A stretch of DNA of 64,000 nt from an uncultured Acidimicrobiales bacterium (GCA_963698395.1 CAVOQQ010000001.1:68754-132753), one strand, 5' to 3'; positions 1-64,000 are shown, numbered from the stretch's first letter. Program-made: numbers and translations. The notes: generated by a model not told the origin, from the letters alone.

Positions 1-490
1 GTCGATTGCTGACATGTTGTCGAGCAGGCGCACGAAGTAGTGCAGTGCGTGGCTCATGTCCTCGACTGAGAGGCCCGCTGCGGCGTCTTCGTAGAAGTCG
101 CGGATCAGCGGGAGCGCCCGCTCGTTCCACGTGTCGAATCCGTGGGGGGTGAGGCGAAGCAGGCGCGATCGTCCGTCGTGCGGGTCGCGGCGTGCCGGCG
201 ATCAGCCCTTCGCGCTCGAGGTGGTTGACGACACCGGCGAGGCTTTGACGGCTGACCGCGAGGTAGCGGGCGAGGTCGCCGACTGACATCCCAGGATCGC
301 GGTCCGGTGGCGGGAGCGCACCGAGTACGGCCCATCGTTGTGTTGTGAGACCTTCGCTCTCGACGGCCCGCGTTCCGACTTTGTGCAACATATTTGCGCA
401 TTGGTACAGCCGAAAGAACAGACGATTCGCCAGCTCGAACCGCGTCTCTCCGTGGCAACATCCTGCAATCTCCGCTGTTGCAGAGGGCAT
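1..490 (-). pseudogene. MarR-family transcriptional regulator (BadR-like); apparent frameshift near 195; 3' end runs off the window
   Basis: ATG at 490 behind GAGGAGA. Reads MPSATAEIAG..GLTTQRWAVLGAL..MSVGDLARYLAVSRQSLAGVVNHLEREGLIA (winged HTH). The family-typical RRDPHDGRSRLLRLTPHGFDTWNERALPLIRDFYED.. continues only in another frame. Divergent from the SDR-crotonase-ACAD-ligase operon. Confidence 0.6.
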
Positions 491-529
491 TCTCCTCGTC
501 GTTGGACATGGGACCCATCCTACTCATCA

Positions 530-596
530 AGAATTCGTTCTGGACATATATGACAATATCATGTTATAAATGACGTCAACGCTCAAGGAGGAAGCC
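530..596. promoter_or_regulatory. AT-rich divergent promoter/operator region between the MarR gene and the badH-like gene
   Basis: Locally AT-rich stretch (ggacatatatgacaatatcatgttataaatgacgtca) with repeated ATGAC motifs, between divergent starts 490 and 597. Function is inferred only. Confidence 0.35.
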
Positions 597-1365
597 ATGA
601 AAAGATTCGAGGACACCACAGTGGTGGTGACGGGAGGTGGAGGAGGAATCGGTAGTGCGCTCTGTCGCGGCTTCGCCGCCGAAGGCGCCAACGTCGCTGT
701 ACTCGACCGAGCTGAGGACGCCGCTGCGAAAGTCGCCGACGAACTCTCTTCCCAAGGTGTTCGTGCTCTCGCTGTGTCGTGCGACATCACCGAGCGAGCT
801 TCCGTCGATGCTGCGGTCGCCCAGGTGACCGATGAGCTCGGGCCCGATCGACGTGCTCGTCAACAACGCAGGCTGGGACCTCTTCGTTCCGTTCCTCGAC
901 ACCGTCCCCGAGGATTGGGCACGCCTGATCGACATCAACCTGGTCGGCGCGCTCAACATGCATCACGCGATCCTGCCGGGCATGGTCGAGCGCAACGGCG
1001 GTCGAGTCGTCAACATCTCCTCGGACGCCGCTCGCGTCGGATCGTCGGGCGAAGCGGTCTACGCGGCGTGCAAGGCGGGGCTCGTGGCGTTCTCGAAGAC
1101 CCTTGCCCGCGAACACTCGCGCCACGGCATCACGTTCAACGTCGTCTGTCCGGGCCCCACCGACACCGCCCTGCTCGCCACGGTGACCGACACTGCAGCG
1201 AACCCGGAGAAGTTGCGCGAGGCGTTCCGACGGGCGATCCCGCTGGGTCGACTCGGCCAACCCGACGACCTGGTCGGCGCCGTCCTGTTCTTCGCCAGCG
1301 CCGACGCCTCGTTCGTCACCGGTCAAGTGCTCAGCGTTTCCGGTGGCCTGACGATGGCCGGCTGA
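597..1365 (+). pseudogene. badH: SDR, 2-hydroxycyclohexanecarboxyl-CoA dehydrogenase-like (BadH-like), one frameshift
   Basis: ATG 597 behind AAGGAGG. MKRFEDTTVVVTGGGGGIG.. reads to ..VTDELGP in the 570 frame. IDVLVNNAGWD..SSGEAVYAACK..GQVLSVSGGLTMAG follows in the 832..1365 frame. One extra base near 846 (gggcccGatc). Confidence 0.65.
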
Positions 1366-1436
1366 CCGCGACCTCATGCAACCCGACACCGCCACCACAT
1401 CTGTACACGCCCGCTCCACCCAACTGAAGGACTGCA

Positions 1437-2219
1437 ATGGACTACACCGACCTCATCGTCGAACACCGCAACCACGTCGCCTACATCACGATCAACCGCC
1501 CCGACAAGATGAATGCGTTTCGCGGTCAGACCTGCGACGAGCTGATCAACGCCTTGCATCGCGCCGGCTACGACCGCGACATCGGCGCCATCGTGCTCGC
1601 CGGTGCCGGTGATCGTGCCTTCTGCACCGGAGGCGACCAATCAGCTCATGAAGGCCAGTACGACGGTCGCGGCACGATCGGCCTGCCGATCGAGGAGTTG
1701 CACACCGCCATCCGGGATGTCCCGGTCCCGGTCATCGCCCGGGTGCAGGGCTTTGCGATCGGTGGCGGCAACGTGCTCGCGACGATTTGTGACCTCACCA
1801 TCTGTTCGGAGTCCGCAACGTTCGGCCAGGTCGGCCCGAAGATGGGGTCGGTCGACCCCGGCTTCGGCACCGCGTTCCTGTCACGAGTCGTCGGCGAGAA
1901 GAAGGCCCGCGAGATCTGGTACCTGTGCCGCCGCTACACCGGCAAGCAGGCAGAAGAGATGGGTCTCGCCAACATCTGTGTGCCCGACGATCAGCTCGAT
2001 GCGACGGTCCAGGAATGGGCAGAAGAGATCTGCGCGAAGAGCCCGACGGCGATTGCCATCGCCAAGCGCTCGTTCAACATGGACACCGCACACCAGGCGG
2101 GCATCGCGGGGATGGGCATGTACGCCCTGCGTCTCTACTACGAGACCGACGAATCCCAGGAAGGCGTCAACGCGCTCAAGGAGAAGCGCCAGCCGAACTT
2201 CCGGGAGTTCGCAACGTGA
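1437..2219 (+). CDS. badI: MenB/BadI-type crotonase, 2-ketocyclohexanecarboxyl-CoA hydrolase-like
   Basis: Intact 260 aa with ITINRPDKMNAF, AFCTGGDQ, GPKMGSVDPGFG, KAREIWYLCR and EKRQPNFREF. Sits directly after the BadH-like SDR. Confidence 0.8.
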   Translation: MDYTDLIVEHRNHVAYITINRPDKMNAFRGQTCDELINALHRAGYDRDIGAIVLAGAGDRAFCTGGDQSAHEGQYDGRGTIGLPIEELHTAIRDVPVPVIARVQGFAIGGGNVLATICDLTICSESATFGQVGPKMGSVDPGFGTAFLSRVVGEKKAREIWYLCRRYTGKQAEEMGLANICVPDDQLDATVQEWAEEICAKSPTAIAIAKRSFNMDTAHQAGIAGMGMYALRLYYETDESQEGVNALKEKRQPNFREFAT

Positions 2220-3373: not shown

Positions 3374-3452
3374 ACCGGCTCGAGTCCGGACCACCGAACT
3401 CGAAGACCACCAAGACGACCAGCCCACGAAACGAACGACGAGGGGAACGCAC

Positions 3453-5083
3453 GTGCATTTCGACGCCGACAACATTCCAGTCCGCCGACCAGCGATGATC
3501 GACGCAGGGTTCTGGCTCGACCAGACCATCAACGAATCCCTCGACGCAGCTGTCGCGGCCCACCCGAGTCGAACGGCGCTCACCGCGGTCCGACTCGATG
3601 GCGACACGCTGTCGATGACGTACGCGAACTCGGTGCCGTCGCTGATCGTGTCGCTCTCGGACTCAACCGCCTCGGCGTACGCGCCAGCGACGTTGTCGCA
3701 GTGCAGCTCCCGAACTGGTGGGAGTTCACCGTCACCTACCTTGCATGTGCCCGCATCGGAGCGGTCATGAACCCGCTCATGCACATCTTCCGAGAGCGCG
3801 AACTCGAATTCATGCTCGGCCACAGCGAGGCATCGGTGGCCATCATCCCATCGACGTTCCGCGACCACGACTACCGGGCCATGTACGACGGCCTCCGCGA
3901 CCGAGCTGCCGCACCTGCAGCACGTCATCGCCGTCGACGACGACGGCCCGAGCGGCTTCAACGCCCGTGCTCGCGGCGACCGACGGTGGAGCCCGATCCC
4001 GACGTCGACGAGATCCTCACCGTGTCGCGACCGGGCCCGGACGACATCACCCAGTTGATCTTCACCTCGGGCACCACCGGCGAACCCAAAGGGGTGATGC
4101 ACAGCTCGAACACGCTCTACTCCAACATCGTGCCGTATGCCGAGCGACTGCACCTCGACAGCGACGACGTCGTGCTCATGGCCTCGCCGATGGCGCATCA
4201 GACCGGGTTCATGTACGGGCTCATGATGCCCGTGATCCTCGGCTGCCCCGCCGTGCTCCTCGACGTCTGGAACCCCGACCGAGCGATCGAGATCATCAAC
4301 GAACACGCGGTCACCTTCACGATGGCATCCACCCCGTTCCTCACCGATCTCGCCGACCGGGCCGAGGCCACTGTTGCCGTGCCGTCACTGCGCACGTTCC
4401 TGTGCGCCGGCGCACCGATCCCCGGCCCACTCGTCGAACGAGCCCAACGTACGCTCGCGAGCGAACATCGTGTCGGCATGGGGTATGAGCGAGAACGGTG
4501 CCGTCACCACAACACTTCTCGATGACGATCCCGAGTCGAGCGATCGACACCGACGGATGCCCTCTCCCGGGGACCGAGGTCAGGGTGGTCGACAGCGACG
4601 GCACCACCCTGCCGACCGGCGAAACTGGTCGCCTCCTCGTCCGGTCGTGCTCGAACTTCGGTGGCTACCTCAAGCGGCCGCATCTCAACGCGACCGACGA
4701 CGACGGATGGTTCGACACTGGCGATCTCGCACGACTCGATGAGCACGGCTACATCCGCATCACCGGACGATCGAAGGACGTCATCATTCGCGGTGGTGAG
4801 AACATCCCCGTTGTCGAGATCGAGAACCTGCTGTACCGGCACCCCGCCATTGCCCAGGTCGCGCTCGTCGCAACGGCTGATGAACGCCTCGGCGAGCGCG
4901 CTTGCGCAGTCGTCGTCATCAATGCCCGGCGAATCGTTCACGTTCGACGAGATGATCGACCACCTCTCCAACGAGCGCGTCGCGAGGAACTACCTCCCTG
5001 AGCAACTCGTCATCGTCGACGCCATGCCAACCACACCGTCAGGCAAGATCCAGAAATTCAAACTGCGCGACGAGATCGCGTGA
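3453..5083 (+). pseudogene. aliA: AMP-dependent acyl-CoA ligase (AliA-like), at least five frame changes
   Basis: Pieces of one ligase lie in successive frames. MHFDADNIP.. (3453 frame). RELGAVADRVALGLNRLGV..LPNWWEFTVTYLACARIGAV..LIFTSGTTGEPKGVMH (3701 frame). ANIVSAWGMSENGAVTTT (4374 frame). DTDGCPLPGTEVRVVD..GWFDTGDLARLDEHGYIRITGRSKDVIIRGGENI (4498 frame). PGESFTFDEMIDHL..PTTPSGKIQKFKLRDEIA (4661 frame). Shifts are near 3622, 3905-3990, 4460, 4536 and 4920. Confidence 0.7.
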
Positions 5084-5621
5084 GACCGTCGAGACGACGA
5101 AACTCCGGAACCCACCCTCAAACAAGTGCGGATACATGATTGTTGAAACACTGCAGCCCGCCAGACGGTCGACGACAACCAACGCGCCAAGTCGCATAGC
5201 AGCTGGATCACCGACCGGGTCCCTACGGTGGCGAACGGCAGATGCGAGGCCGAGGTGGCTCGTATCGTCTGGCCCGACCTACGCGGATCAGTCGACGTTG
5301 CCGGCAGAGCGCTGCGGCACCGACGTCGTCGCGTCACGTTCTCGACGTCGTGGCCAACGACCGTGTCGTGCAAGCGGTGGATTTCGACTCGGAGGCACCT
5401 GAGTTCGCCGGGACCATGACGATGACCTGGTCCGTGCGCCGAGACGGGCGGTGCGAGAACCGAGATCGTTGCCGAAGACGTTCCACTCGAGATCTCCGCC
5501 GAGGACGATGCCGTGGGCCTTGCTTCGAGTCTCGAGAATCTGGCACGCTTCGTCGAGTCGTCAGACCCGTCCGCGCTACGTCGTTGCCGATGAACGTCGA
5601 GTCGCAGCGACCGTCCGGACG

Positions 5622-7813: not shown

Positions 7814-8922
7814 GTGAGGACTGCTTTCTGTGGAGGCATCGGCTTGGTGGAGGGCGAAACGGCCGCCGTTGGGTCGATCAGGTCGATCAACCGTTGCGCA
7901 TCGGAGCCTTCGACGGCGATCACCGTGAGACCGGTCGGTCCGGGCGGGGCGTCCATGATGTCGATCGACTGCGGGGTGAGCTGCACCAGGTACCGCTGTC
8001 CTTCGATGACGAGGCGGCCCTTGGCCCGCACGAGCCCTGGCCTGGATGCTTCGAGTACGGAGCGCAACTCGCTCATCGTCGGTTCGTGTCGTTGCTCCAA
8101 CGTGACGACCGCGAGCTCCCGGTGTATCGCTCCTGCGTTGGCAGGTGCCGGACGGGCTCCTCGCGGAGCGCCGGGCAGGAGCACGTGGGTTGCGGGCGCC
8201 TGACGTGACGAACGAGTCACGGTTCGACCGGGAGCGAGCTGGGCGGCCCGTTCGACGGCGGCTGTCGCGGCGTGGTGATCGACGAGGTCACACGCCGAGA
8301 CGATCACGCAGTGGGCGCTGTCGATCTGACGGTCGGTGATCGACGCCATTGGTTCGAGCAGCGCCGTTTCGGGCAGTTTCGTTTCGGGCAGTTTCGTTTC
8401 GGGCAGTTTCGTTTCGGGCAGTGCGGGTTGGTGAACGGTGGCGGCGGTGAGTTGTGCGGCGCTGACGACGGCGACGATCCGGTCGAGCCGTAATGACGGG
8501 TTGGCGGCGATGACCTGAGCCACCGCGAGCGGGTCGGCCGCTCCGCTGGCCTCGAGCACGATGAGGTCACAGGTGGGATCGTCGGCCAATGCGGCCAGCG
8601 CGTCGGCGAGTTCGGAGGTCCGCTCGCAGCATCCGCAACCGTTCGTGAGCTCGACTCGAACGTCGTTTTCCGACTCGATCAGCGTCGGGTCGAACTCGAG
8701 TGCTCCGACATCGTTCACGATCGCCTTGATCCGGGTGTCGTCGGGTGGGTTCGTCAGCAGATCGGCGAGCAGGAACGATTTCCCGGCGCCGAGGAACCCG
8801 GTGAGAAGACACACCGGCGTCGGGGTTTCGGTGTCCCCCAACGCTTGGGCGCTTGGATCTGGTCGATGCGCGACGAGTTGCGTCCTGAGCGAGAGCCATG
8901 CGGCTTCGATGTCGGCAGGCAT
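7810..8922 (-). CDS. COG0523/CobW-family G3E GTPase (putative metallochaperone)
   Basis: Intact 370 aa with P-loop GFLGAGKS and metal motif NGCGCCE (CxCC). Carries a (PETKL)n insert between the GTPase and C-terminal parts. Confidence 0.8.
   Translation of the reverse strand: MPADIEAAWLSLRTQLVAHRPDPSAQALGDTETPTPVCLLTGFLGAGKSFLLADLLTNPPDDTRIKAIVNDVGALEFDPTLIESENDVRVELTNGCGCCERTSELADALAALADDPTCDLIVLEASGAADPLAVAQVIAANPSLRLDRIVAVVSAAQLTAATVHQPALPETKLPETKLPETKLPETALLEPMASITDRQIDSAHCVIVSACDLVDHHAATAAVERAAQLAPGRTVTRSSRQAPATHVLLPGAPRGARPAPANAGAIHRELAVVTLEQRHEPTMSELRSVLEASRPGLVRAKGRLVIEGQRYLVQLTPQSIDIMDAPPGPTGLTVIAVEGSDAQRLIDLIDPTAAVSPSTKPMPPQKAVLT
8366..8422 (-). repeat. 15-bp in-frame tandem repeat, about 3.8 copies
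   Basis: gtttcgggcagtttc x3 plus a partial fourth unit. On the minus strand it encodes PETKL PETKL PETKL PETAL inside the COG0523 gene. Confidence 0.9.
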
Positions 8923-8927: not shown

Positions 8928-10640
8928 TCAGCTGCCCGTAGGGATGCCGCCGAGCACGGTGTCGATCACATCGATCGAGCCGATCTCGGTCGGCGCGACC
9001 TCGAAGGGGTCGTTGGCCAGCACGGTGAAATCGGCCAGCTTGCCGACCTCGATCGAGCCGATCGAGTCGTCCTGCCGCAGCACGTGTGCGGCGTCGACGG
9101 TGATCGCTCGCAACGCTTGTTCGACCGAGATCCTCTCGCCGGGAGCGAGAACGGTCTCGCCGTCGGCTCCGATCCGGGTGGCAGCGATCTCGGCAACGAG
9201 CAGAGGCGACAGCGGGGTGACGACGAGGTTGAAGTCGGAGTGGAGCGCAAACGGGGCTCCGGCCCGCAGGAGTGAACCGAGCCGTGCGGTTGCTTCGGCC
9301 CGGTCGGGACCGAAGCCGGCGTCGGCGTGCATCTGGGCCCGGAACTTCACGAAGTAGGCATTCACGCTGGCCATGCCGCCGAGTGCGGCGAGGCGGCGAG
9401 CTTGCGCCGGTGTGCTGAGGCAGTAGTGCTCGATGACGAACCGGTGATCGAAGCGGGGATGGGCGTGCTGTAAGCGGGCGAGCACATCGAGCGTCATGTC
9501 GACGGTTGCGTCACCGTTTGCGTGCGAGTGGATCTGCACGCCGGCCTTCCAATAGGGCAGCATCCTCTCGTAGACCTCGTCCCACGGGATCTCTCCAGTG
9601 AGGCCGTGCTCGCCGTCGAGGTAGCCGGGCGAGCCGATCTGCAGGGTCATCGACGGGTAGGAGCCATCGTTGATGAACTTCACCCCGTGCGTCGCGAGTC
9701 GGTCGTCGCCTTGTGCGCGTCGGGCGGCGAGGAACTCGAAGGCGTCGTCGCCGAACTTCCGGCGCAGCGATGGCTCGAAGGGAACGAGCAGTACCCGGAG
9801 GGGGAGTTCACCGGCGTCGATGGCATCACGGTGGTCGGCCCACTCGGTGTCGAAGTTCTCGAAGCCCCACCCCATGTCGGCGGTGGTGGTGATGCCCACG
9901 CCTCGGGCAACCCCTCCCATGCGGGCCAGCGCGGCCCGCCCGAACCCCTCGCGGTAGATCATCTGTGCAACCGGACGGACAGCGACCGCGACGGCCGCCG
10001 TCTCGACGAACCAACCGTTGAGACGGCCATCCGCGTAGCGACCCAGTCCGTGGAAGTCCGATGCCTCATCGACGCCGGCCAAGTCGAGCATGGGCGAGTT
10101 CGCGTAGACGATGTGCGGGGCGTAGGCGCACACCCAGATCGGCACGACATCGCTGATCTGGTCCAGCAGATCGCGATCGAGATGTCCGCCGTGCGCTGCC
10201 GGGTCGTACCCCCAACACACCACCGGCTCTGGCCTGCCGTCGGGCCCGGGAACCGAATCGGTGGCGAGTCGTCGAAGGCGCTCGATCACGTCGTCGCGAG
10301 TCGTGACGGGTGGCAGCGCTCTCGGAGAGGCGAGTTCGATGGGGCCGACATAGTGGAGTCCGGCGAACGTGCCCGACAACCGCAAGTGCGTGTGAGGGTC
10401 GATGAATCCCGGGAGCATCACCCGGTCGGCATAGCGATCGTCGATCTCGTGAGGCACACGACGCAGCCATGGCTCCATCGATTCAAGCGTCCCGACCGAC
10501 ACGATCGATCCGTTGGCAACGGCCACGGCGGTCGCATGGGGCCGCCCCTGGTCCATCGTGTGGATCCGTTCGGCGGTGAACACACGAAGCTGCGTCGGTC
10601 GGGCGTTCGACAGCGAAGTACGCAACATCAGGTCATCCAC
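8928..10640 (-). CDS. metal-dependent amidohydrolase (Amidohydro_3 / YtcJ-like)
   Basis: Intact 570 aa with PGFIDPHTHLRLSG, HSHANGD and FALHSDF. Ends 5 nt upstream of the COG0523 gene start. Confidence 0.85.
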   Translation of the reverse strand: MDDLMLRTSLSNARPTQLRVFTAERIHTMDQGRPHATAVAVANGSIVSVGTLESMEPWLRRVPHEIDDRYADRVMLPGFIDPHTHLRLSGTFAGLHYVGPIELASPRALPPVTTRDDVIERLRRLATDSVPGPDGRPEPVVCWGYDPAAHGGHLDRDLLDQISDVVPIWVCAYAPHIVYANSPMLDLAGVDEASDFHGLGRYADGRLNGWFVETAAVAVAVRPVAQMIYREGFGRAALARMGGVARGVGITTTADMGWGFENFDTEWADHRDAIDAGELPLRVLLVPFEPSLRRKFGDDAFEFLAARRAQGDDRLATHGVKFINDGSYPSMTLQIGSPGYLDGEHGLTGEIPWDEVYERMLPYWKAGVQIHSHANGDATVDMTLDVLARLQHAHPRFDHRFVIEHYCLSTPAQARRLAALGGMASVNAYFVKFRAQMHADAGFGPDRAEATARLGSLLRAGAPFALHSDFNLVVTPLSPLLVAEIAATRIGADGETVLAPGERISVEQALRAITVDAAHVLRQDDSIGSIEVGKLADFTVLANDPFEVAPTEIGSIDVIDTVLGGIPTGS

Positions 10641-48210: not shown

Positions 48211-48218
48211 GCGTGTCA

Positions 48219-48286: not shown

Positions 48287-48299
48287 AGTCCAGAGGTCA

Positions 48300-48335
48300 G
48301 AAGGGTCGCATGCCGGTGCGGCCCTTCGTTTGCTT
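48300..48335 (+). terminator. intrinsic terminator-like hairpin
   Basis: GAAGGGTCGCA-tgccgg-TGCGGCCCTTC (11-12 bp stem including one G-U pair), followed by GTTTGCTT. Confidence 0.5.
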
Positions 48336-48372
48336 CCAGCACGGAAATGCCGGTCCATGACCGGGTGAACGG

Positions 48373-48960
48373 CTATGTCCGGACGGTCTGCTGGGCAGCC
48401 GCGCTGGCCGACGGTCGGGGGATGGTTCCTCGGCTCGTTCGCTCGGCGAGGAGTCGGTAGACGGTGAGGAACACGACGACCGCGGCGGCGAGGGTGTTGG
48501 CGGCCCAGTACGCCGGGTGGGTGGCATCGGTGCCGGCGGTGATGCCGTGGAGCGTGGCGATCCAGAAGAGCGGGTAGCTGATGAGGTGGATGTTGCGCCA
48601 GGTCTTGCGTGGCAGTCGTTTCATGGCGAGCGAGGTGCCTTCGACCGCAGCGAGGAGGTAGAAGCCGATCACGCCAAGAGCGACGGGGGCCGGTTTCCAG
48701 TCGGACGCAAAGGGGATGAAGAGGTCGGCAACGCTGAACTCGATGTAGCTGTCGGCCACGAGCGCCACGAGGTGCAGTCCGGTGAAGGCGAGCGCAAGTC
48801 CTCCGAGGTGACGGTGGAGGTCGAGGAGCCATTTGGGGGTGGGTCCGCCCTTGAGCAGGCGGGTGGCGAAGAGCAGTCCCCAGATCATCGATGCGGTCAG
48901 GAGAGCCCAGGCGACGATGCCCGATGATCGGGCGAGGTACCACCAGAACTGGGGGTTCAT
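48373..48960 (-). CDS. ferric-reductase-like (MsrQ-like) transmembrane protein
   Basis: ATG 48960 (4-nt overlap with the apbE stop). 196 aa, 6 TM, with LDLHRHLGGLALAFTGLH and NIHLISYPLFWIATLHG. The first 82 aa of the listed ORF are discounted. Confidence 0.75.
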   Translation of the reverse strand: MNPQFWWYLARSSGIVAWALLTASMIWGLLFATRLLKGGPTPKWLLDLHRHLGGLALAFTGLHLVALVADSYIEFSVADLFIPFASDWKPAPVALGVIGFYLLAAVEGTSLAMKRLPRKTWRNIHLISYPLFWIATLHGITAGTDATHPAYWAANTLAAAVVVFLTVYRLLAERTSRGTIPRPSASAAAQQTVRT

Positions 48961-49865: not shown

Positions 49866-50145
49866 GGCTGGTCGTCATTGCAGGCTGATCGGTGGCGGCG
49901 ACCGTGACGGCGGTGGGTGCGTCGATGGCACGGTTGGCGACCTGGGTCGCTGAGGATTCGATGTCGGGAACGTCGGGGGTGGCCATGGCCGTGGCGAGGC
50001 CCAGGGTTGCGGCGATGCTGAGCCCGGTGACCAAGATTCGGCTCGCTGCAGCTGGGTGGCTCCGCTGACGCGCGGTCGACGAGTCGGTGGAACGCCGAAC
50101 GGCTGCCGTCTTTCGGCGTACCGGCCTGGCGTGGGGGTCAGTCAT
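49855..50145 (-). CDS. small secreted/membrane-anchored protein
   Basis: ATG 50145. MTDPHARPVRRKTAAVRR..ILVTGLSIAATLGLATAMA is signal-peptide-like. 96 aa; overlaps the apbE start by 11 nt. Confidence 0.45.
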   Translation of the reverse strand: MTDPHARPVRRKTAAVRRSTDSSTARQRSHPAAASRILVTGLSIAATLGLATAMATPDVPDIESSATQVANRAIDAPTAVTVAATDQPAMTTSHAS

Positions 50146-50532
50146 CGTGGTCGTAGCCCTCGTACTCGTGGCTCTCGTCCTCGTCGTCTCGTCGTCCTCA
50201 GACTCGTAGTTGTCCTCAGACTCGTCGTCGTGGGACTCGTATCGATCGTCGGATTCGTAGGAGTCGTCGGACGGGTGAGCGGAGGAGTCGGTGATGGTGC
50301 TTGCCGAGGAGGTGGTGACGGCCGGATTGTCGCTTGTGGCGATCGTGATGGGACCGGGGACCTCGACGCTGGTGGTGGTTTCCCCGGCGGTGACCATGGT
50401 CGGGTTGAGGGTGCCGACGCCGTCGTTGCGGCTGGTGTCGAGGATCCCTCCGTTGAGAGCCATGGCGGCGCTGGCGCTGACCATGGTGGCGGCGACGGCA
50501 GCCGAAGTGATGAGGGCTTTGCGGGGTTTCAT
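50138..50532 (-). pseudogene. secreted protein with highly acidic C-terminus, one frameshift
   Basis: ATG 50532 behind AAGGAG. MKPRKALITSAAVAATMVSASAAMA, a Thr/Ser-rich region, then SDDSYESDDRYESHDDESEDNYESEDDE. The tail DDEDESHEYEGYDHDD* is in another frame (shift near 50190). Confidence 0.5.
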
Positions 50533-50611
50533 TGCGGTCTCCTTGAAGACGTGCTCTTGGGGGTTGTCTTCAAGATACGCAGGGGTGTTCCAGCGGGATC
50601 CCAGCGAAGAG

Positions 50612-51433
50612 TTAGGGGAGAGTAAAGGTTCGCCGGGCTGCTGACCCGGCGGCGGCAACTCCTCGTTCTGGGCGTCGGCGGTGTCCGCCGTCGGGAGACG
50701 GATCGATGCGTCGACGCCACCGCCGGGCCGGTCGCCAAGTGTGGCGTGGCCGCCGCTCTCGGCTGCGAGTTCTGCCACGATCGCCAGCCCGAGGCCAGAT
50801 CCTTTGGCGCGGTTGCCCGGCGCCCGCCAGAACCGGTCGAAGGCCCGCTGACGGGCATCGGCGTCGAGACCCGGACCTTGATCGATGACGTGGAGGGTCA
50901 GCCAGGATGCCGTGTGGTCGACGGTGAGGGAGATGGTGCTGCTCGGCGGAGCGGCATTCAGCAGCGTTGGAGATGAGGTTGTCCAGGATCTGTTCCAGTG
51001 CACCCGGGATCGCCAGAACCGACCCGTGAGCATCGCCACCGACGGTCACCGTCACGCCCTTTCCTGCGGCTTGTGGTGCCACAGGCGAGCGGTCGCAAGA
51101 GTCGGTGACGAAGGCTCGTTGGGCGGTGAGGATCTCGGGTCTCGACGAGAAGGCGCTTGTCTGGTCGGTGTCGGTGTCGTAGACGCTCAGGCCGTCGTTG
51201 TCGACCACGACGATGCCGCCGTCGCCCGTTGCGTACCCGTCGAGAACTTGATCGAGTTCTGGGAAGATCCCGGCTTCGAGCGCGTCTTCGGCCAGGCCGG
51301 CCACCACGGTGGCGTCGCGTTCGATGTCGAACAACAGCCGGTCTCGTTCGCGGGACGCGAACGTCTGTCCGAGCGGGATCACCAGGCCAACCAGAGTGAT
51401 GGCCAGGTAGGTGAGAACGAGGCGGCGGGTCAT
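50612..51433 (-). pseudogene. degenerate sensor histidine kinase (no H-box His, internal deletion, frameshift)
   Basis: ATG 51433 MTRRLVLTYLAITLVGLVIPLG (TM). AFVTDSCDRSPV sits where F.ad.SHELR.P is expected. It is followed almost at once by GALEQILDNLISNA, then LTLHVIDQGPGLD..GSGLGLAIV in a second frame (shift near 50960). The stop is ambiguous. Confidence 0.6.
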
Positions 51434-51560
51434 GGCGTCGGGTCGAGTCGGAAGCCGACCCCGCGGATGTCGGTGATCCACTCGGGGCGTGCGAGTTTCG
51501 CCTTCGATCTGTTTCCCTTACGACACCGGCATGCGAAGGCCGCGATTGTTCATCGATGAA
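51430..51560 (-). pseudogene. OmpR-type response-regulator C-terminal remnant
   Basis: RSKAKLARPEWITDIRGVGFRLDPTP*; the TGA overlaps the kinase ATG. No receiver domain lies upstream. Confidence 0.35.
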
Positions 51561-51705
51561 GGCGGAGGTGAAGCCCTGTCGGGTGGTGCCGATGCGGTCG
51601 CTCCGGTGCCTTCATCGGAGCTTCATCATCGCAACGGCGGGGCCTTCATCGGGCTGGATTCCAATGGAGGAGAAGAAGGAATCCACTCGACGGAAGGAAC
51701 TCGTC

Positions 51706-52122
51706 ATGAAGAACAAGACGCTTCTCAGCCTCGGCTTGGCCATCGCGATGGTCGTCTCCACCGGGGCGGCCGTTGCCGCAGCTCAAGACGATGCCACGAC
51801 ATCCAGCTCGACCACGGTCCAGGTCGTGGACCAGGACCGCGATCAGATCCGTGACTGTGATCTCTACGACGGCACCGCAGATCAAACCCGTGACCGGAAC
51901 CGTGACCGCGACCTCGCAGCCACGATCACCGACGCAGTGCAGGTCCGCGAACGTGTTCAGGCCCATCGGCACCGCACTGACACCGACCCTGCCTTCGGGC
52001 AAGGCAATGCCGCCGGGGCTGCCAACGGCGGCTACGGCGACGGTGTCGGTGATGGGACCGGTGCCCTCCATGAGGGCCCGGCCGATGGCACCGGTAGCCA
52101 GTTCGGCCGCAGCGGCCGCTGA
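51706..52122 (+). CDS. secreted Asp/Arg/Gly-rich protein
   Basis: ATG 51706 behind GGAAGGA. MKNKTLLSLGLAIAMVVSTGAAVAAA is a signal peptide. No family recalled. Confidence 0.55.
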   Translation: MKNKTLLSLGLAIAMVVSTGAAVAAAQDDATTSSSTTVQVVDQDRDQIRDCDLYDGTADQTRDRNRDRDLAATITDAVQVRERVQAHRHRTDTDPAFGQGNAAGAANGGYGDGVGDGTGALHEGPADGTGSQFGRSGR

Positions 52123-52340
52123 AAGACTGAGCGCAGTGACGCTGCCGGGGCCCAGCGACATGCTGGGCCCCGGCGGTCGTTCCCAGCCTCGGGCAGTACC
52201 TCGCCGCATCCCGATGTCGGTGACGAAGCGGAATGCCCGGGTAGGGAAGATTGTCGATCCGAAGCTCCTGCCACGTGCACTCGAGTCGGAGCTGAGTCGA
52301 GGCAAGTCGCGCTCGAAACCCGTTCGTCGATGTTGTTGGC

Positions 52341-53348
52341 ATGACAACCCAAATGACATTGACCGAAGCCGAAGCCGAAGCGACGACGACGGTCCGACCG
52401 TCGTCACCGACAAGGGACCACGCGCCCGAGTGGGTGTTGATTGCAGATCGTGGAATGATTGCTCACATGACAGCGAAAGAGTCTTCGTACGTATCCGATG
52501 CCGACGGCACCGTCGTCGCGACCTCGGCATGGATCGACGTCGCTGGTGATCCCATCGGTGTAGTCCAGATCGCTCACGGCCTGGCCGAGCATGCTGCACG
52601 ATATGAGCGGTTCGCTTTGGCGTTGAACCAGGCGGGGTTCCTCGTCTACGCCGTCGACCATCGTGGCCACGGCCGCACCAGCCGAGACAGCCTGGGTGAT
52701 TTCGGTGAGGCCGGCTTCTCGGGGTTGATCGCCGATGTGGCCCAGTACGGGTCGGCCCTGGCCGCCGACCATCCCGAACTGCCGCTGTTCTTGTTCGGTC
52801 ATTCGATGGGATCGTTCGCTGCTCAGGCGGTGATTGCCGAGCATTCGGCGCAGTACGCCGGTGTGGTGTTGTCCGGTACGAGCGCGATGGACGTGCTCGC
52901 TGCCGGCATGGCCGACGCCGATCCCGATGCGCCTGCCGGGCTCGAGGCGTTCAACGTCGGTTTCGAGTACCGCACGGGGTACGAGTGGCTCTCGAGGGAC
53001 GAGTCCGAGGTGGATGCGTACGTGGCCGATCCTTGGTGCGGTTTCGACCTGCCTGACGAGACCGTGCCGATGCTGTTCGAACCAGCGGCCCGCTTGGCCG
53101 ATCCCGAGGTACTCGCCGGGATCCGCAGTGATCTGCCGATCCTGATCACATCGGGCACTGCCGATCCGCTGGCCGGTGGGGGAGCGTTGATCGAAGTGTT
53201 GGCCCAGCGTTACCGCGACGCCGGCATCGCCGATGTCTCGGTCAAGCTCTATCCCGACGCCCGTCACGAGATCCTGAACGAGACCAACCGTGACGAGGTC
53301 ACCACCGATCTGGTCGATTGGTTGAAGAGCCGAGCCTCAGCCGGCTGA
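52341..53348 (+). CDS. alpha/beta hydrolase (monoacylglycerol-lipase / lysophospholipase-like)
   Basis: VQIAHGLAEHAARYERF, VDHRGHGRT and GHSMGS. ATG 52467 is a likelier start. Confidence 0.8.
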   Translation: MTTQMTLTEAEAEATTTVRPSSPTRDHAPEWVLIADRGMIAHMTAKESSYVSDADGTVVATSAWIDVAGDPIGVVQIAHGLAEHAARYERFALALNQAGFLVYAVDHRGHGRTSRDSLGDFGEAGFSGLIADVAQYGSALAADHPELPLFLFGHSMGSFAAQAVIAEHSAQYAGVVLSGTSAMDVLAAGMADADPDAPAGLEAFNVGFEYRTGYEWLSRDESEVDAYVADPWCGFDLPDETVPMLFEPAARLADPEVLAGIRSDLPILITSGTADPLAGGGALIEVLAQRYRDAGIADVSVKLYPDARHEILNETNRDEVTTDLVDWLKSRASAG

Positions 53349-53403
53349 CCCATCGTGCCGTACGAGCGTTCGGCGCTATTGCGACGCCGGCATCGCCGAT
53401 GTC

Positions 53404-55776
53404 TCAGGCACGGTCGATCGTGTCGATCACGACGACATCGTCGGTGGTCAGGGTTTGCTCCCGGCCGTGGATGACGACCTCGATCGGGTCGCCCTCGGTG
53501 ATCCAGTACTGCTCGCTGTCTTGGGTGAGTCGCACACGGATCTGGCGGTCGTGGAACCGTAGCGAGAAGCCGAGCGAGCGGAATCGTTGCGGCAAGTGGG
53601 GGTCGATCGTGAGCCTTCCGTCGAAGTCGCGCACTCCGCCGAACCCGAACACCAGGCCCATCCAGCCGCCCGCCGACGAGGCGATGTGGACCCCTGACGA
53701 CATGTTTCCTGCGACGTCGGCCAGGTCCATCATGAGGGCGAAGTCGAGGTAGCGACATGCCGACTGCTCGTCGCCGATCTCCGATGCGACGATGCTCTGG
53801 ATGCTGGCCGACAGGGACGAGTCCCCGGTCGTGATCGGGTCGTAGTACTCGAAGTTTCGCCGCTTCAGATCGAGCGTGAACTCGTTGCCGAGCAGGAACA
53901 TGGCCATCACCACGTCGGCCTGCTTCAACACCTGGTGACGGTAGATCGTGAGCGGGTGGGCGTGCAGGAGAAGCGGGAATCGCTCGGGGGGAGTGCGCGA
54001 GAGATCCCATCGCTCGCGAGTGAGGAAGGTCGCGTCCTGCGGAGTGATGCCGCGGGTCGGATCATACGGAATGTGCATGTGATCGGCGGCTTGCACCCAC
54101 TCGTCGAGCTCGGACGATTCCAGCTCGAGCTCCTTGGCGATGCCGTCGTAGACCGCGGGCCGCTCAGCTTCGAGGGATCGCAATGTCGCCGCGGCGTAGT
54201 GCAGGTTCATCCGGGCCATCAGGTTCGTGTAGGCATTGTCGTCGACCATGGTCGTGTACTCGTCTGGCCCGGTGACGCCGTGGATGTGGAAGTCGCCGTC
54301 TTCGGCGTAGAAGCCGAGATCGGCCCACATGCGCGCCGTCTCGACCAGGATCTCGGCACCGGTCTCGGCGATGAAACCGGTGTCGCCTCGCACGTCGATG
54401 TAGCGCCGGATCGCGTACGCGATGTCGGCGTTGAGGTGGAACTGTGCGGTGCCGGCCTGGAAGTACGCCGAGGCCTCATCGCCGCGGATCGTTCGCCATG
54501 GAAAGAGTGCGCCCCGGAGATCGAGCTCGCGCGCTCGCTCTCGTGCGCTGGGCAGCATGCTGTGACGAAAGCGGAGCAGGTTCCGTGCGATTCTGGGCTG
54601 GGTGTAGGCGAGGAAGGGCAGGACCCATGCCTCGGTATCCCAGAAGTAGTGGCCGTCGTACGCATCGCCGGTCAGCCCCTTGGCCGGGATCCCCGCCCCC
54701 TCGGCCCGCCACGACGCCTGAGCGAGATGGAACAGGTTCCAGCGGATTGCCTGCTGCATGCGCACCGGATGGGTGGCGGTGTCCTCGATCGTCACGTCGG
54801 CGCGATCCCAGAATTGATCGAGGCAATGGCGTTGCTCGGCGACGAGTGAGTCGAAGCCGACGGCGGTGACACGATCGAGGGTGAAGCGGCATCGTCGTGC
54901 GAGGTCGGGAACGGCGACGCTGCGAGAGGTGTGGTACGCCGCGTACTTCTCGAGATGAATCGGCACACCAGGTTCGGCATCGACGGCGATGACGACCTCC
55001 GACACATCGGGGTCGACATCGACGGAAACACGATGGGGGCTGGCAATGTCGAGCACATGATCAATGCCGACGGCGAGCGTCATACCGCTCGACACCGTCT
55101 GGTACCCGAGCACGATCCGATCGGCGTCACCCTCGGTGAGGCGTGCTTCGAGCACGCGTCGCCCGAGGCGCGTGCCGAGGCGGGGATCGGCGTGGTCGCC
55201 ATCCGTGTTGGGCTCGACGTCGACGGGGTTTGCCCGGTTCACGATGCGAGAGCGGATCGTCACCGGCGCTCGGCGGTCGATCGTCACGTCGTAGGAGATG
55301 GCGACCACGTGACGGTGCTCGAACGACACCAGCCGGGTGCTGCGTACTCGGGCATGCTTGCCCGAAGGCGTCGTCCAGAGCAGGTCCCGGGTCAGCAACC
55401 CATTGCGCATGTCGAGGACCCGGAGATACTCGGGGGTTCGTGCGGTCGGAAGGAACAACGGCTCGTCGTCGACGAACAACTCGATGATCGTCGCATCCGG
55501 CACATTGACGATCGTCTGGCCGACGCGGGCCAGCCCGTAGGCGTCCTCGGCGTGGGCAATCGGCCAGGTCTCGTGGAAGCCGTTGATGAAGGTACCGGGA
55601 GCGAACGAGGGACGTCCCTCGTCCTGGGTGCCGCGGACGCCGAGGTAGCCATTCGCCAGCGCCACTGCGGTCTCGGCCCGAGCGGAGTAGCCGGGTGTCA
55701 ACTGTCTCTCGACGATCCGCCATTCGTCCGGCGGGAACAGATGCTCGGGTGGGATCGTGATCTTTCGTTGCCGCAT
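53404..55776 (-). CDS. glycoside hydrolase family 65 phosphorylase (kojibiose/trehalose/maltose-phosphorylase type)
   Basis: ATG 55776. 790 aa with HYFWDTEAWVLPF, HGVTGPDEYT and KQADVVMAMFLL. The first 167 aa of the listed ORF are discounted. Confidence 0.85.
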   Translation of the reverse strand: MRQRKITIPPEHLFPPDEWRIVERQLTPGYSARAETAVALANGYLGVRGTQDEGRPSFAPGTFINGFHETWPIAHAEDAYGLARVGQTIVNVPDATIIELFVDDEPLFLPTARTPEYLRVLDMRNGLLTRDLLWTTPSGKHARVRSTRLVSFEHRHVVAISYDVTIDRRAPVTIRSRIVNRANPVDVEPNTDGDHADPRLGTRLGRRVLEARLTEGDADRIVLGYQTVSSGMTLAVGIDHVLDIASPHRVSVDVDPDVSEVVIAVDAEPGVPIHLEKYAAYHTSRSVAVPDLARRCRFTLDRVTAVGFDSLVAEQRHCLDQFWDRADVTIEDTATHPVRMQQAIRWNLFHLAQASWRAEGAGIPAKGLTGDAYDGHYFWDTEAWVLPFLAYTQPRIARNLLRFRHSMLPSARERARELDLRGALFPWRTIRGDEASAYFQAGTAQFHLNADIAYAIRRYIDVRGDTGFIAETGAEILVETARMWADLGFYAEDGDFHIHGVTGPDEYTTMVDDNAYTNLMARMNLHYAAATLRSLEAERPAVYDGIAKELELESSELDEWVQAADHMHIPYDPTRGITPQDATFLTRERWDLSRTPPERFPLLLHAHPLTIYRHQVLKQADVVMAMFLLGNEFTLDLKRRNFEYYDPITTGDSSLSASIQSIVASEIGDEQSACRYLDFALMMDLADVAGNMSSGVHIASSAGGWMGLVFGFGGVRDFDGRLTIDPHLPQRFRSLGFSLRFHDRQIRVRLTQDSEQYWITEGDPIEVVIHGREQTLTTDDVVVIDTIDRA

Positions 55777-56143
55777 GCCGAGTCCTGTCGTGTGAGTCAG
55801 GAGAGTCCGCAGGCACTCCTGTCGAGCCCGTCGTCGTTCCACTGCGCTTCCTGCACCCAAGGCTGCTCGAACCGCATGCTGGAGCCCAGAGGACTTGGAC
55901 TCATTGGACCAAGGCATTCGACAGACGGGTTCATCCAGTCGGGCCCTGTTTGCTCGGCCGGCTGCCGCGAAGCCTCCTCCATCGTCTCGTGGGTCAGGCG
56001 ACCCCGAAGTAGCGGGTCGGCCTCTACCAGATTGGCGGCCAGGAGAGAGAGGGGGGATGCCTTGCGCGCTGGGGTGGCTCGGTGATCGCAGCGGCCGTCG
56101 AAGGCGAGGTTGATCGATCAGCGGAACGGTCTCATGGTTGGTC

Positions 56144-56818
56144 TCACTCACTCTGGCCCTCGGGAGGACGACGCTGTGTTCGGGTGAAGGTGAGGTGGGT
56201 GACGCCACTGGGCGTGGAGACTGCCTCCACGTCGTACTGCTGCTCCAGCGCCTCGAGGCCGTCCCACAGCCGAACACCGCGACCGAGCAGGATCGGCACC
56301 TGTACGACGTGTAGATGGTCGACGAGCCCGGCGGCGAGGAACGCCCGCACTGTGGTCGGGCCTCCGCCGATGCGCACGTCTTGACCGGCTGCTGCGTTGT
56401 GCGCCACCTCGAGCGCAGCGGCTGGCGAGGTGTCGAGGAAGTGGAATGTCGTGCCGCCCTCCATCTCGAGCGACGGGCGTGGACGGTGGGTCAGGACGTA
56501 CGTCGGTGTGTGGAAGGGCGGGTTGTTGCCCCACCACCCGCGCCACGCCGGGTCGTCCTGCCAGCCCGGAGGACCGAATTTGTTGGCGCCCATGATCTCC
56601 GCACCGATCCCTGGTCCGTGCCGGTCGGCCATGGCGTGATCGATTCCCTCGGTGCCGCCCGAATCGCCGAGGACTTCGCGGTGGCCGAATCGAGTGGCGA
56701 CCATCCACTCGTGGAGCCGATGCCCGGCGTGGCCGAACGGGGCGTCGAGGGCCTGTCCCTCGCCGGTGGCGAACCCATCGAGCGAGATCGAGAAGTTGTG
56801 GACGCGGACCTGGGACAT
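56144..56818 (-). CDS. dihydrofolate-reductase-family (RibD C-terminal domain) protein
   Basis: ATG 56818. MSQVRVHNFSISLDGF and VRIGGGPTTVRAFLAAGLVDHLHVVQVPILLG. Confidence 0.8.
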   Translation of the reverse strand: MSQVRVHNFSISLDGFATGEGQALDAPFGHAGHRLHEWMVATRFGHREVLGDSGGTEGIDHAMADRHGPGIGAEIMGANKFGPPGWQDDPAWRGWWGNNPPFHTPTYVLTHRPRPSLEMEGGTTFHFLDTSPAAALEVAHNAAAGQDVRIGGGPTTVRAFLAAGLVDHLHVVQVPILLGRGVRLWDGLEALEQQYDVEAVSTPSGVTHLTFTRTQRRPPEGQSE

Positions 56819-58650: not shown

Positions 58651-58654
58651 AAGA

Positions 58655-59010
58655 GGCCAACCATGACGAGTATCGACCTGAGGAAGGCCAGTTCGACCCC
58701 GCAGACAAGTCGAACTGGTTGTGGACCATGATGATCTGCCGGCCCGAGCCGGTGACCGAAGCAATGGCGGGAGACGATCCCCGTCGTCACGGCGAAGAAG
58801 AAGCTGCGAGTCGGCGACCGAGTGAGGTTCGAGCGATTCGCCGAGGGCCTCGCCGCCCAGGTCCTCCCGATCGGCTCCTACGCCGTTGAGACACCCACCA
58901 TCGCATCACGACACGCCTTCATCGCCGAACGAGGGGGCGAGCTGTCCGGCACCCACCACGAGATCTCTCTCTCCGACCCCCGCAAGGTTGCCGCCGAGCG
59001 GTCATGGCCT
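58655..59010 (+). pseudogene. GyrI-like small-molecule-binding domain, C-terminal half only, one frameshift
   Basis: FDPADKSNWLWTMMI.RPEPVTEAM | ETIPVVTAKKKLRVGDRVRFERFAEGLAAQVLPIGSYAVETPTIASRHAFIAERGGELSGTHHEISLSDPRKVAAE. The N-terminal half is absent. Shift near 58765. Confidence 0.45.
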
Positions 59011-62155: not shown

Positions 62156-62159
62156 TCGT

Positions 62160-62741
62160 CGCACCGCCTGGCGGTGACGCCACATGGTTGCAGGACGTCC
62201 TCGATGACGAGGTCGTCGGCTTCATCACGCTCGACAACGGTCTCAAGAAGGTGTGGTGCACCACACCGCCGACCCGCGGGCCAGCCTGAAGGCCCTGGCC
62301 GATGCGCTGGCTCCCGACGGTGGCATCGGCATGATGGTCTACGCCCCCTACGGCCGGCGGGTGTCGAGCCGTTGCAGCGCGCGTTTGCGTCACTGTTCGC
62401 CACCGACACGGCCGACGATCGCGTCGCCCTGGCCCGCGAGGCATTCGACCAGATCCCGAAGGCGCATCCATTCGCCCGCAACACGGTGTTGGGTGACCAC
62501 CTCACCGGCGACGCCGGGCTCGGCCTCGCCGCGTTCGTCGGGCACGGTTGGTACGACCCCTGCCGATACCTACCCCAGACGGACGCCTTTGCGCACCGGG
62601 TCGGGCGGCTCGACCACGCTCGGCCAGATGGCAGCGGATGCGGGGGTCGGCTGGGCGGAGTTCCTGGACATCTGGGGCCCGGCAGCAGGCGAACTGAGCG
62701 CGTTCGACCTTTTGCACTACTCGTGCGGCGCTCGCCCCTGA
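62160..62741 (+). pseudogene. class I SAM-methyltransferase remnant lacking motif I, frameshifted
   Basis: VVHHTADPRASLKALADALAPDGGIGMMVYAPYGR | AGVEPLQRAFASLF..RVALAREAFDQIPKAHPFARNTVLGDHL, in at least two frames. No GxGxG motif upstream. Confidence 0.4.
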
Positions 62742-62836
62742 TGCCCGCAGATGAACGCCGACTTCAGAGGCTGGCTCCCGATGGGGCCAAAGAAGGCGTG
62801 GGCAACCGCGAGACCGACCGGCGACGGCACGGTGGG

Positions 62837-63883
62837 CTAGAGCGCAGCGGTGTCGCGGACCTCCCACTCGAAGAGTGGGTCACCCAGATCGAGGCGCTGG
62901 TGCACGACGAGGTGCTTGTTCTCCATGGCGGCGAGTCCTTCCCAGAGCGAGTTCCAGCTGTCGAAGACTGCGGGGTGGACCGTCGTCGGGTCGAAGACGC
63001 GCCATTCGGCCAGACGAATTCGCGGGTTCGGCCCAGTGGCGTCGACCTCGCAGTGGTGGCTGTGTCCGGCCAACAGGAGCGCCAGTCGCTGCTCGAACGG
63101 TCCGACTTCCCCGGTCATGCTCATGATGCGTTCGTGGAACTGCATCGCGACCTGGTGCCCGACCACCGTGGCCACGCTTCGGGTGTCTGCCGGGCCGAGC
63201 ACCTCGGTCATGGCCGGGAGGATCGTGTGGATGTAGTTCATGGCGTAATTGCGCTCGACCTTGGCCAACCGCACCTGGTCCCACGTCGGGATCGGTAGTG
63301 GTTCGGCCGGGCCAGGCGGACGTTCTCCCGGTCGATACCGAACCCGGTCCTCGGCTGCCAGGGGTTCGGATTCCTCGATGTAGTAGCCAACCAGGCCGGC
63401 CTGGCCGTCGGTCGTCTGTGAGGTGGCGACGAATCCGAGACGATCGTTGTCGAGCGAAACGCCGTTGTGTCCGTGCCAGCCTCGCAGCATGGCCCGGCTC
63501 AGCTCGGTGGGGATGCCGCAGACCGCCGTCCCGTCGAAGATCCATCGCGGCGGCAGATATCGCACCCACGATTTGGTTTCGGACTCGGGGATCCACTCGA
63601 CACCGACGCCGCCGAGTGCGTTGGACAGCACGTGGTATTTGGCGCAGGCGACGGCGTCGGGTTCGTTGGTGAGGCCAAGCTTCACCAACCCGGGTCGGAA
63701 CGCTTCGAGGTGCTGATTGCGGAACGTGCGGAACACGACGTCGGCAGCAGGGGAGGTGCCCAGTCGGGTGACCATGCCGAGGAGGAGTCCGGTCAGGTAT
63801 CGGTGGTAGAGCTCGGCGAGTGCGGCCCATGCGTTGGCTTCGCTGCCCAGCCCGGACGTCCCGTCGTCGATCTTCGTCTCCAT
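62837..63883 (-). CDS. conserved-looking hypothetical protein
   Basis: ATG 63883 behind GGAGGA. 348 aa, intact, no family recognised. The first 33 aa of the listed ORF overlap the kinase tail. Confidence 0.55.
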   Translation of the reverse strand: METKIDDGTSGLGSEANAWAALAELYHRYLTGLLLGMVTRLGTSPAADVVFRTFRNQHLEAFRPGLVKLGLTNEPDAVACAKYHVLSNALGGVGVEWIPESETKSWVRYLPPRWIFDGTAVCGIPTELSRAMLRGWHGHNGVSLDNDRLGFVATSQTTDGQAGLVGYYIEESEPLAAEDRVRYRPGERPPGPAEPLPIPTWDQVRLAKVERNYAMNYIHTILPAMTEVLGPADTRSVATVVGHQVAMQFHERIMSMTGEVGPFEQRLALLLAGHSHHCEVDATGPNPRIRLAEWRVFDPTTVHPAVFDSWNSLWEGLAAMENKHLVVHQRLDLGDPLFEWEVRDTAAL

Positions 63884-63902
63884 CACGCGTTCCTCCGACT
63901 CT

Positions 63903-64000
63903 TCATCTACCACCAGCGGTCGCTCGGTGCGAGTCTGCGCGGGTGGCCAGCGGCAGGGCGAGGGTGAACGTGGCGCCACCACCGGGCGTGGCTCCGACGG
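63903..64000 (-). CDS. sensor histidine kinase, extreme C-terminus (partial, continues beyond window)
   Basis: Minus-strand frame VGATPGGGATFTLALPLATRADSHRATAGGR* has the typical kinase ending (G..F.l.LP). Confidence 0.45.
   Translation of the reverse strand, partial: VGATPGGGATFTLALPLATRADSHRATAGGR

Follow-up and report, generated by a model that had tools for sequence, protein, structure and literature searches.

Frame changes and truncated genes in a 64-kb stretch of an uncultured Acidimicrobiales genome: probable assembly errors alongside the debris of a variable region

In the stretch of DNA analysed here (G000:C1:68754-132753, 64 kb from an uncultured Acidimicrobiales bacterium, hereafter called the window), many genes appear to be interrupted by one-base frame changes or reduced to fragments. 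A sequence-only reading had counted about 30 of some 80 units as frameshifted, truncated or fused, a figure that agrees with our tally of about 18 frame-disrupted units and 8-10 fragments among 70-80. Comparative and statistical tests on the assembled sequence make it quite probable that the one-base frame changes are for the most part errors in the consensus of this assembly, and that about ten truncated fragments are real, ordinary debris of a variable region. Positions given below are those of the window, unless contig C1, C2 or C3 is named.

Frame-switch candidates were searched for ab initio over the whole genome (5.47 Mb in 8 contigs, 65-66% G+C, marker completeness 94.85%), which, going by its contig count alone, looks like a long-read metagenome-assembled genome. 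A hexamer coding model was trained on the long open reading frames (ORFs) of G000 and applied with a seven-state Viterbi path (six frames plus non-coding). This procedure gave 530 candidates, with a mean of 5.8 and a variance of 12.7 per 64 kb. A similar density was obtained for the sister assembly G003 (6.1; 10 contigs, 79% complete), and much lower ones for G002 (1.4) and for G004 (0.5), which is assembled in 530 contigs. The same contrast emerged from a reciprocal homology census, whose queries were ORFs trimmed to the coding segments supported by the hexamer model. Stop-to-stop ORFs were dropped as queries because their conserved 5' leaders and wrong-frame extensions gave spurious stops, and because they made a frameshift of the query genome appear as one of the subject genome. 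Across 258 kb of orthologues in G000, at a median identity of 89%, queries from G004 revealed 24 frameshifts and a single internal stop. In the reverse direction, 271 kb of G004 searched with queries from G000 contained one frameshift and no stops. In terms of frameshifts per 10 kb of conserved orthologues, this corresponds to 0.7-0.9 in G000 as compared to 0.04 in the fragmented sister assembly. Another 17 and 13 frameshifts were detected in G000 with queries from G002 and G003, respectively, and several sites were backed by two relatives. The rate was no lower in conserved genes, being 0.66-1.26 per 10 kb in those at least 92% identical and similar in diverged ones, and longer genes were hit more often, 3.7% of those below 1.2 kb and 17% of those above 2.4 kb. 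Single-base insertions outside homopolymers were found also in G003 (G003:C5:1-400000, L029-L048), and this assembly probably shares the technical problem of G000.

The spectrum of the lesions points in the same direction. Outside the window, 35 one-base insertions were counted vs. 6 one-base deletions; all of the 8 precisely mapped events inside it are insertions. The spectrum submitted to statistical analysis comprised 38 insertions, 9 deletions and 3 stops; insertions account for about 80% of events and stops for about 5%. Single-hit pseudogenes of Salmonella show instead 17% insertions, 45% deletions and 38% premature stops (Kuo & Ochman, 2010; PMC2916853), values from which G000 differs with a chi-square p of 1e-27. 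The mixed spectrum, the many stops and the deletion bias that characterize decay were therefore not observed in G000. The excess of insertions is not made by the pipeline, since the reversed run returned events of mixed type for G003 and, for G002, mainly deletions. Neither neighbour matches the inserted base in 26 of the 35 cases, and for this reason a homopolymer mechanism was rejected. The sequence-only reading had noted that many single shifts sit in short G/C runs, where read errors of the homopolymer type occur. This observation did not hold, because most precisely mapped events insert a base unlike its neighbours; the caveat attached to it, that the shifts might be consensus errors, is the better reading of the one-base changes. 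Among the ab initio candidates, 380 had a net +1 and 150 a net -1 shift, the reverse of what ordinary gene boundaries show (200 vs. 541). Net +1 events occur at about 4.2 per 64 kb whether a region is dense or fragmentary, whereas net -1 events climb from 1.1 to 2.8 per 64 kb in fragmentary regions. This pattern fits a uniform layer of errors with a smaller, region-specific layer on top of it; the latter may be real or may consist of false positives in poorly coding DNA.

Essential genes are not spared. The canonical fusA gene, encoding EF-G and located next to tuf (C3:989875-991935), is read in a separate frame over profile positions 169-252. Comparison with the 95%-identical G002 orthologue (EF-G score 1081 bits) placed insertions at C3:990335, 990369 and 990621, within 290 nt. 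Since the gene keeps a 745-amino-acid open frame despite about 84 residues of the G domain being out of frame, a gene caller would report a seemingly intact but garbled protein. The nuoF, nuoG and nuoH genes (C3:925583-930750), which are 93-97% identical to those of G004 and G002, carry one frame-shifting indel each, at C3:925967, 928693 and 929911, and lesions were found also in the genes for an mtrA-like regulator and an MmpL3-like transporter, in ppk1 and in glgB. The lesions are patchy: a pair of adjacent genes with 94-97% identity to G004 holds six insertions within 1.3 kb, nine genes have at least two hits (2.4 expected), and 27% of the gaps between consecutive candidates are shorter than 1 kb (9% under a Poisson distribution). 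Clustering, with long genes spared, had been taken by the sequence-only reading as an argument for real pseudogenisation. As lesions cluster in fusA, in genes 94-97% identical to their orthologues and over the whole genome, clustering does not discriminate decay from error, and real pseudogenisation is partly supported for the truncated and deleted relics only.

In the window, frame changes were located by a Pfam scan of 88 ORF pieces and by comparison with G000 paralogues and with the DNA of relatives (tblastn high-scoring segment pairs, HSPs, and DNA alignments). The tblastn comparison with G000 paralogues, used on its own, was abandoned as too insensitive, having detected 7 window junctions only. 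In DNA alignments at 72-76% identity the many compensating insertion/deletion pairs were treated as noise, and uncompensated events alone were counted. The genes with frame changes are the following.

1-523, minus strand: MarR-family gene (Pfam MarR_2), one-base insertion near 187-191.
570-1365, plus strand: SDR gene, one-base insertion at 843 (GGG[C]CCG), corresponding to C1:69596.
3394-5083, plus strand: AMP-binding ligase, read in frames 1, 2, 3, 1, 2 along the intact 586-amino-acid G003 orthologue (L002:1496-3256, minus strand).
5254-5554, plus strand: remnant, last ~100 residues of a 267-amino-acid protein, +1 shift near 5445.
22930-24000, minus strand: WYL-domain regulator gene, about three frame changes (~23090, ~23565 and ~23685).
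23973-24939, plus strand: alpha/beta hydrolase, net +1 shift at 24392-24445.
31408-32371, minus strand: gene of unknown function, net +1 shift near 31873, placed by DNA alignment.
32718-34360, minus strand: PEP-utilizers-domain gene, three frames, shifts near 32827, 32960 and 33700.
35171-36160, plus strand: second SDR gene, C-terminal ~50 residues out of frame, net +1 switch at 36025/36026.

The ligase is the most heavily hit of these. Five sites of insertion were mapped, at 3899 (+1), 3978 (+2), 4458 (+1), 4529 (+1) and 4923 (+1), and a further N-terminal shift lies near 3600, which bears out the earlier estimate of at least five frame changes. Its Pfam domains are spread over three ORFs, and the gene was aligned to G002 as well as to G003. 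Its pieces are nevertheless 79.8% identical to G003, with no stop in 460 aligned codons; the identity of G000 to G002 (72.0%) is 2.3 points lower than that of G003 to G002 (74.3%). Relaxed constraint was thus not detected in this multiply-hit gene. The WYL and PEP-utilizers genes also behaved as anticipated, since 3-4 frame changes had been proposed for the former and 3 for the latter. In the first, WYL and WCX lie in separate frames, and the alignment of the G004 homologue (L078:1818-3440, minus strand) runs in frame -3 apart from an excursion into frame -1. The second matches Pfam PEP-utilizers, and its paralogue HSPs fall in frames -3, -2 and -1.

The single shifts were supported as follows. 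HSPs of the MarR-family gene to its G003 and G002 orthologues switch frame at 179-200 with a net +1; the insertion was mapped to C1:68940/68944. In the first SDR gene the in-frame adh_short_C2 match begins at profile position 70, and 31 homologues switch frame at 835-845, every one of them with a net +1. In the second, the adh_short_C2 match ends at profile position 185 of 236, and the ab initio path switches frame at that point. A tblastn search with a G001 ORF (L077) matched the remnant at 5254-5554 with query residues 163-229 in frame 1 and 228-265 in frame 2. The alpha/beta hydrolase matches Abhydrolase_1 at profile positions 1-102 and 171-245 in two frames, and its paralogues switch frame at the same place; a 340-amino-acid ORF of G004 aligns to the gene at 31408-32371 with query residues 170-325 and 12-176 in two frames (199 bits). 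The window alignments that were examined contained no clean nonsense substitution; a stop that seems to occur at 31195 is enclosed by a +2 insertion (31153) and a +1 insertion (31256). Two further candidates were discarded, namely a switch at 7870, which is an ordinary ATGA overlap between an abhydrolase and a cobW gene, and apparent splits of the amino-acid permease (41388-42578), which are located in G003 and not in the window.

The claim that long genes are uninterrupted was confirmed for three of the four genes on which it was based. The fourth, a 1.6-kb propeller gene, turned out to be the C-terminal half of a frameshifted fusion gene, which tells against the argument from spared long genes as well.

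8928-10640, minus strand: amidohydrolase, intact, one ORF, Pfam Amidohydro_3 profile positions 7-468 of 472.
16680-18887, minus strand: LAL-type LuxR regulator, intact, AAA_16, TPR and GerE in one 735-amino-acid ORF colinear with a 755-amino-acid G002 homologue.
53404-55785, minus strand: GH65 glycoside hydrolase, intact, three GH65 Pfam domains, all full length.
37497-40387, minus strand: Hsp70-like ATPase plus beta-propeller (PQQ-type), a single gene in relatives and split in the window.

GH65 is 87% identical to G003 across 788 residues in a single frame. The Hsp70-like/propeller architecture is kept in two congeners, whose single ORFs of 936 (G002, L083) and 885 amino acids (G003, L084) align to both halves of the window gene, in frames -1 and -3. 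The break is a net -1 change in a 30-bp tandem repeat (39078-39181, 3.5 copies, one copy a base short), which forms the linker between the Hsp70-like half and the propeller half. If the frame change is real, the repeat might in principle serve as a slippage-prone switch of the on/off or fusion/split kind. Another tandem repeat, perfect and of 15 bp, is contained in the cobW-family gene (8365-8422, 3.9 copies, CGTTTCGGGCAGTTT).

One-base errors cannot make truncations or an internal deletion, and the remnants are therefore a separate class from the one-base shifts. The following features belong to this class or border on it.

22103-22801, minus strand: 5'-truncated LuxR remnant, C-terminal ~235 residues only, GerE at the C-terminus.
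24941-25162: YceI-like N-terminal stub (plus strand) and MarR-like C-terminal stub (minus strand), tentatively read by eye from the six-frame translation.
25206-26389, minus strand: LuxR-type response regulator, intact, then the tail of a 5'-truncated histidine kinase at 25895-26389 (Response_reg, GerE, HATPase_c).
26507-28072: cassette of an ArsR-type regulator (minus strand) and a hydrolase (plus strand) (HTH_20, Hydrolase_4).
28803-29060, minus strand: second histidine-kinase C-terminal remnant, ~86 residues (HATPase_c, E = 2.5e-10).
44385-44849, plus strand: ABC-transporter ATPase remnant, N-terminal two thirds (ABC_tran profile positions 1-80 of 137).
50659-51499, minus strand: histidine kinase with ~217 codons deleted internally and a frame change near 50957, HATPase_c kept.
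58769-58996, plus strand: possible GyrI-like C-terminal half, translated by eye, weak Pfam match (profile positions 73-142 of 155, E = 0.074).

That several loci are relics distinct from indel cases, as had been suggested, was confirmed by partial homology or by breakpoints for the LuxR tail, the two kinase tails and the ABC ATPase head. Full-length homologues of the LuxR remnant (726-864 amino acids) are matched by it solely over residues 494-720, 514-749 and 619-858, and no ATG, GTG or TTG is present among the first 120 codons of its open frame. An apparent shift in it at 22226-22253 belongs to the G001 query, GerE lying in the main frame of the window. At the first kinase tail, the DNA from 25187 or 25231 to 26389 is 91-93% identical to G003 and G001, and homology ends at 26389 in both; G003 carries a 782-amino-acid kinase ORF where the window has the tail. 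The second kinase remnant aligns only to the last 70-85 residues of kinases of 424-725 amino acids, and homologues of the ABC ATPase remnant match over residues ~44-199 only, out of 253-311. The internally deleted kinase matches residues 9-173 and 391-490 of the 505-amino-acid G004 query and residues 58-222 and 439-527 of the 554-amino-acid G003 query, the two parts being about 56 nt apart in the window, with the junction at ~50960-51017. Breakpoints of truncation and internal deletion with respect to intact orthologues, as expected of pseudogenes, are therefore present. The remaining relics of the sequence-only reading are less clear. The MarR/YceI stubs gave no Pfam match and were visible by eye, and the proposed half-domain at 58655-59010 was weakly matched.

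The surroundings of these remnants are mosaic. DNA matches between the window and congeners are patchy, and their identity ranges from 65% to 93%, including values of 86-89% to other genera or families. Lack of synteny with congeners together with such mosaic identity is a feature of genomic islands. Beyond the breakpoint at 26389 comes the ArsR-hydrolase cassette (26520-28096), which is 86-88% identical to another genus (G005; L075, G005:C176). The N-terminus of its hydrolase is shifted by an inserted G at 27310 (ACC[G]CAC), and the G005 copy lacks two internal stretches of about 380 and 275 nt; as read from these sequences, the cassette suggests horizontal spread followed by independent decay. 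Part of a gene with a RibD_C domain (56180-56535) shows 89% DNA and 92% protein identity to a genome of another family (L082, G013:C703), far exceeding the 65-80% typical of the window. The GH65, Usp and amino-acid permease genes, which lie within 5.6 kb in G003 (L069, G003:C11:144223-149863), extend over 14.5 kb in the window (41388-55900), where about 9 kb of extra genes are found between them (ABC transporter, GNAT, TetR, cupin, ferric reductase/ApbE and kinase). tRNA and Rfam scans of the 64-kb window gave no match, and no integrase or transposase Pfam match was found among the 88 ORF pieces; the borders of the region fall outside the window. Mycothiol-related domains (MDMPI_N and PIG-L) were found by Pfam among the window ORFs and are compatible with Actinomycetota. 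On this comparative evidence, the window is an ordinary variable region that appears to have been shaped by gain, replacement and deletion.

Whether the window is exceptional in the genome depends on what is counted. Its fragmentation is extreme, with 91 coding segments (top 0.6% of the 64-kb windows) and a non-coding share of 22.6% by the model (top 8%), and it belongs to a contig end, C1:1-132000, in which 25-27% is non-coding and 79-90 coding segments per 64 kb are found, as compared to genome medians of 11% and 67. For frame switches it stands out only moderately, with 12 ab initio candidates (top 8%), one of which is the ATGA overlap, a false positive. The richest stretch of the genome for such candidates is C2:48000-160000 (18-19 per 64 kb), where coding density is normal.

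In the reading that we favour, spurious single-base insertions, mainly outside homopolymers, would occur at about one per 10 kb of coding sequence over the whole genome, in local patches, and would strike genes by length, irrespective of conservation or essentiality. The spread of the lesions over the genome, their spectrum, the hits in essential genes and the breakpoints of homology are shown by the present data. We infer that the inserted bases are absent from the underlying reads; their patchiness possibly reflects locally low coverage or failed polishing. A second layer would be provided by the fragmentary, non-syntenic end of C1, of about 130 kb, holding what deletion and replacement have left: 5'-truncated kinases, a truncated LuxR, a 3'-truncated ABC ATPase and a kinase without its central ~217 codons, together with cassettes 86-93% identical to other genera. 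Several observations weigh against this reading. Counting by hand gave about 25 frame events in about 50 kb of window coding sequence, where the genome-wide rate predicts 4-5, and the ab initio count of 12 is also above the mean of 5.8. Moreover, the ab initio events of the window are split into 6 net +1 and 6 net -1, while the error type is +1, and the -1 change in the 30-bp repeat (39078-39181) may be an example of a real frameshift. The two- to five-fold excess of frame changes and the 6:6 split may thus leave room for some real frameshifts in the window, although a consensus of locally poorer quality, as might result for instance from reduced depth over a strain-variable island, would account for the excess equally well. 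rpoB and rpoC are intact. The insertions, being outside homopolymers, differ from the classical Nanopore error type, and the comparison between assemblies relies on platforms of G000 and its relatives that were guessed from contig counts only.

If a sizeable minority of the window frameshifts (the net -1 events) were real, they would mark, together with the truncations, an accessory region of about 130 kb (C1:0-132 kb) in active decay in a probable Acidimicrobiia-type actinobacterium, which we regard as unlikely. A rival explanation is that pseudogenisation of an accessory island is real and ongoing, most frame changes of the window being true mutations, and that dispensable genes, once inactivated, gather further lesions, giving rise to the clusters in the ligase, WYL and PEP genes. 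This would agree with the fragmentation of the window, among the highest in the genome, with its mostly non-syntenic setting, with the true truncations and the internal deletion, and with the enrichment of net -1 events in fragmentary regions and of frame changes in the window, at two to five times the genome average. The precisely mapped events, however, are all non-homopolymer insertions, a signature shared with fusA and nuo, and some 25 indel lesions are accompanied by no nonsense substitution in the alignments examined. The ligase with its five lesions remains 80% identical to G003, genes with 94-97% identity to G004 show similar clusters, and the +1 rate is equal in core and fragmentary regions. 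Taken together, these results make ongoing decay of an accessory island a quite improbable account of the frame changes.

The opposite possibility is that everything is artefactual, the truncated relics being chimeric strain joins or collapsed repeats of a metagenome assembly. The location at a contig end, the mosaic of segments 65% to 93% identical to relatives and the fact that the assembly demonstrably has errors would be in line with this idea. On the other hand, homology to G001 and to G003 ends at the same position, 26389, with a coherent cassette beyond it, and the internal deletion of the kinase is seen with respect to both G004 and G003. In addition, the degraded, internally deleted copy of the cassette in the fragmented assembly of another genus (G005) indicates that such remnants occur naturally in the group, and one would not ordinarily expect a long contig to hold eight or more independent chimeric joins within 64 kb. 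We consider this explanation very improbable, and retain the reading in which the one-base shifts are mostly errors and the remnants are real.

If this is correct, the frameshift "pseudogenes" of G000, and probably of G003 too, are not biology, and gene calls, estimates of pathway completeness and pseudogene censuses are affected. The real remnants are ordinary and mainly mark the C1 end as a variable region. Error can be tested against decay, with no need of the reads, by the combination used here: the spectrum of insertions, deletions and stops, the way in which the lesions depend on how conserved and how long a gene is, whether essential genes are hit, and how a congener assembled by other means compares.

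With respect to known systems, the window resembles genomic islands in its lack of synteny, in its 86-93%-identity cassettes beside genes of about 70% identity, in its regulator and transporter genes and in its gene fragments, and differs in that the scans of its sequence and of its 88 ORF pieces turned up neither a tRNA nor an integrase or transposase. Classical deletion-type remnants, like those of bona fide pseudogenes in Salmonella (PMC2916853) and in the reductive genomes treated by Danneels et al. (2018; PMC6054270), are represented by the LuxR tail, the head of the ABC ATPase, the truncated kinases and the kinase with the internal deletion. The frameshifts are unlike such pseudogenes, in which deletions and premature stops dominate, since conserved and essential genes are not avoided, insertions make up about 80% of the lesions and stops about 5%. 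Spurious pseudogenes derived from assembly have been documented (Cooley & Wright, 2024; PMC11017572), and tools for frameshift correction in assemblies with indel errors exist, such as proovframe (bioRxiv 10.1101/2021.08.23.457338). As in the spurious pseudogenes of long-read or low-coverage assemblies, the lesions of G000 are genome-wide, proportional to gene length and present in essential genes, with almost no stops; nearly none are found in a differently built sister assembly, and the proteins are fully conserved in the shifted frames. Usual Nanopore errors affect homopolymer length, whereas here non-homopolymer bases are inserted in patches, three of them in 290 nt of fusA, the platform itself being presumed. 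An assembly artefact of an already described type is the best explanation of the frameshifts, and nothing in the window amounts to new biology.

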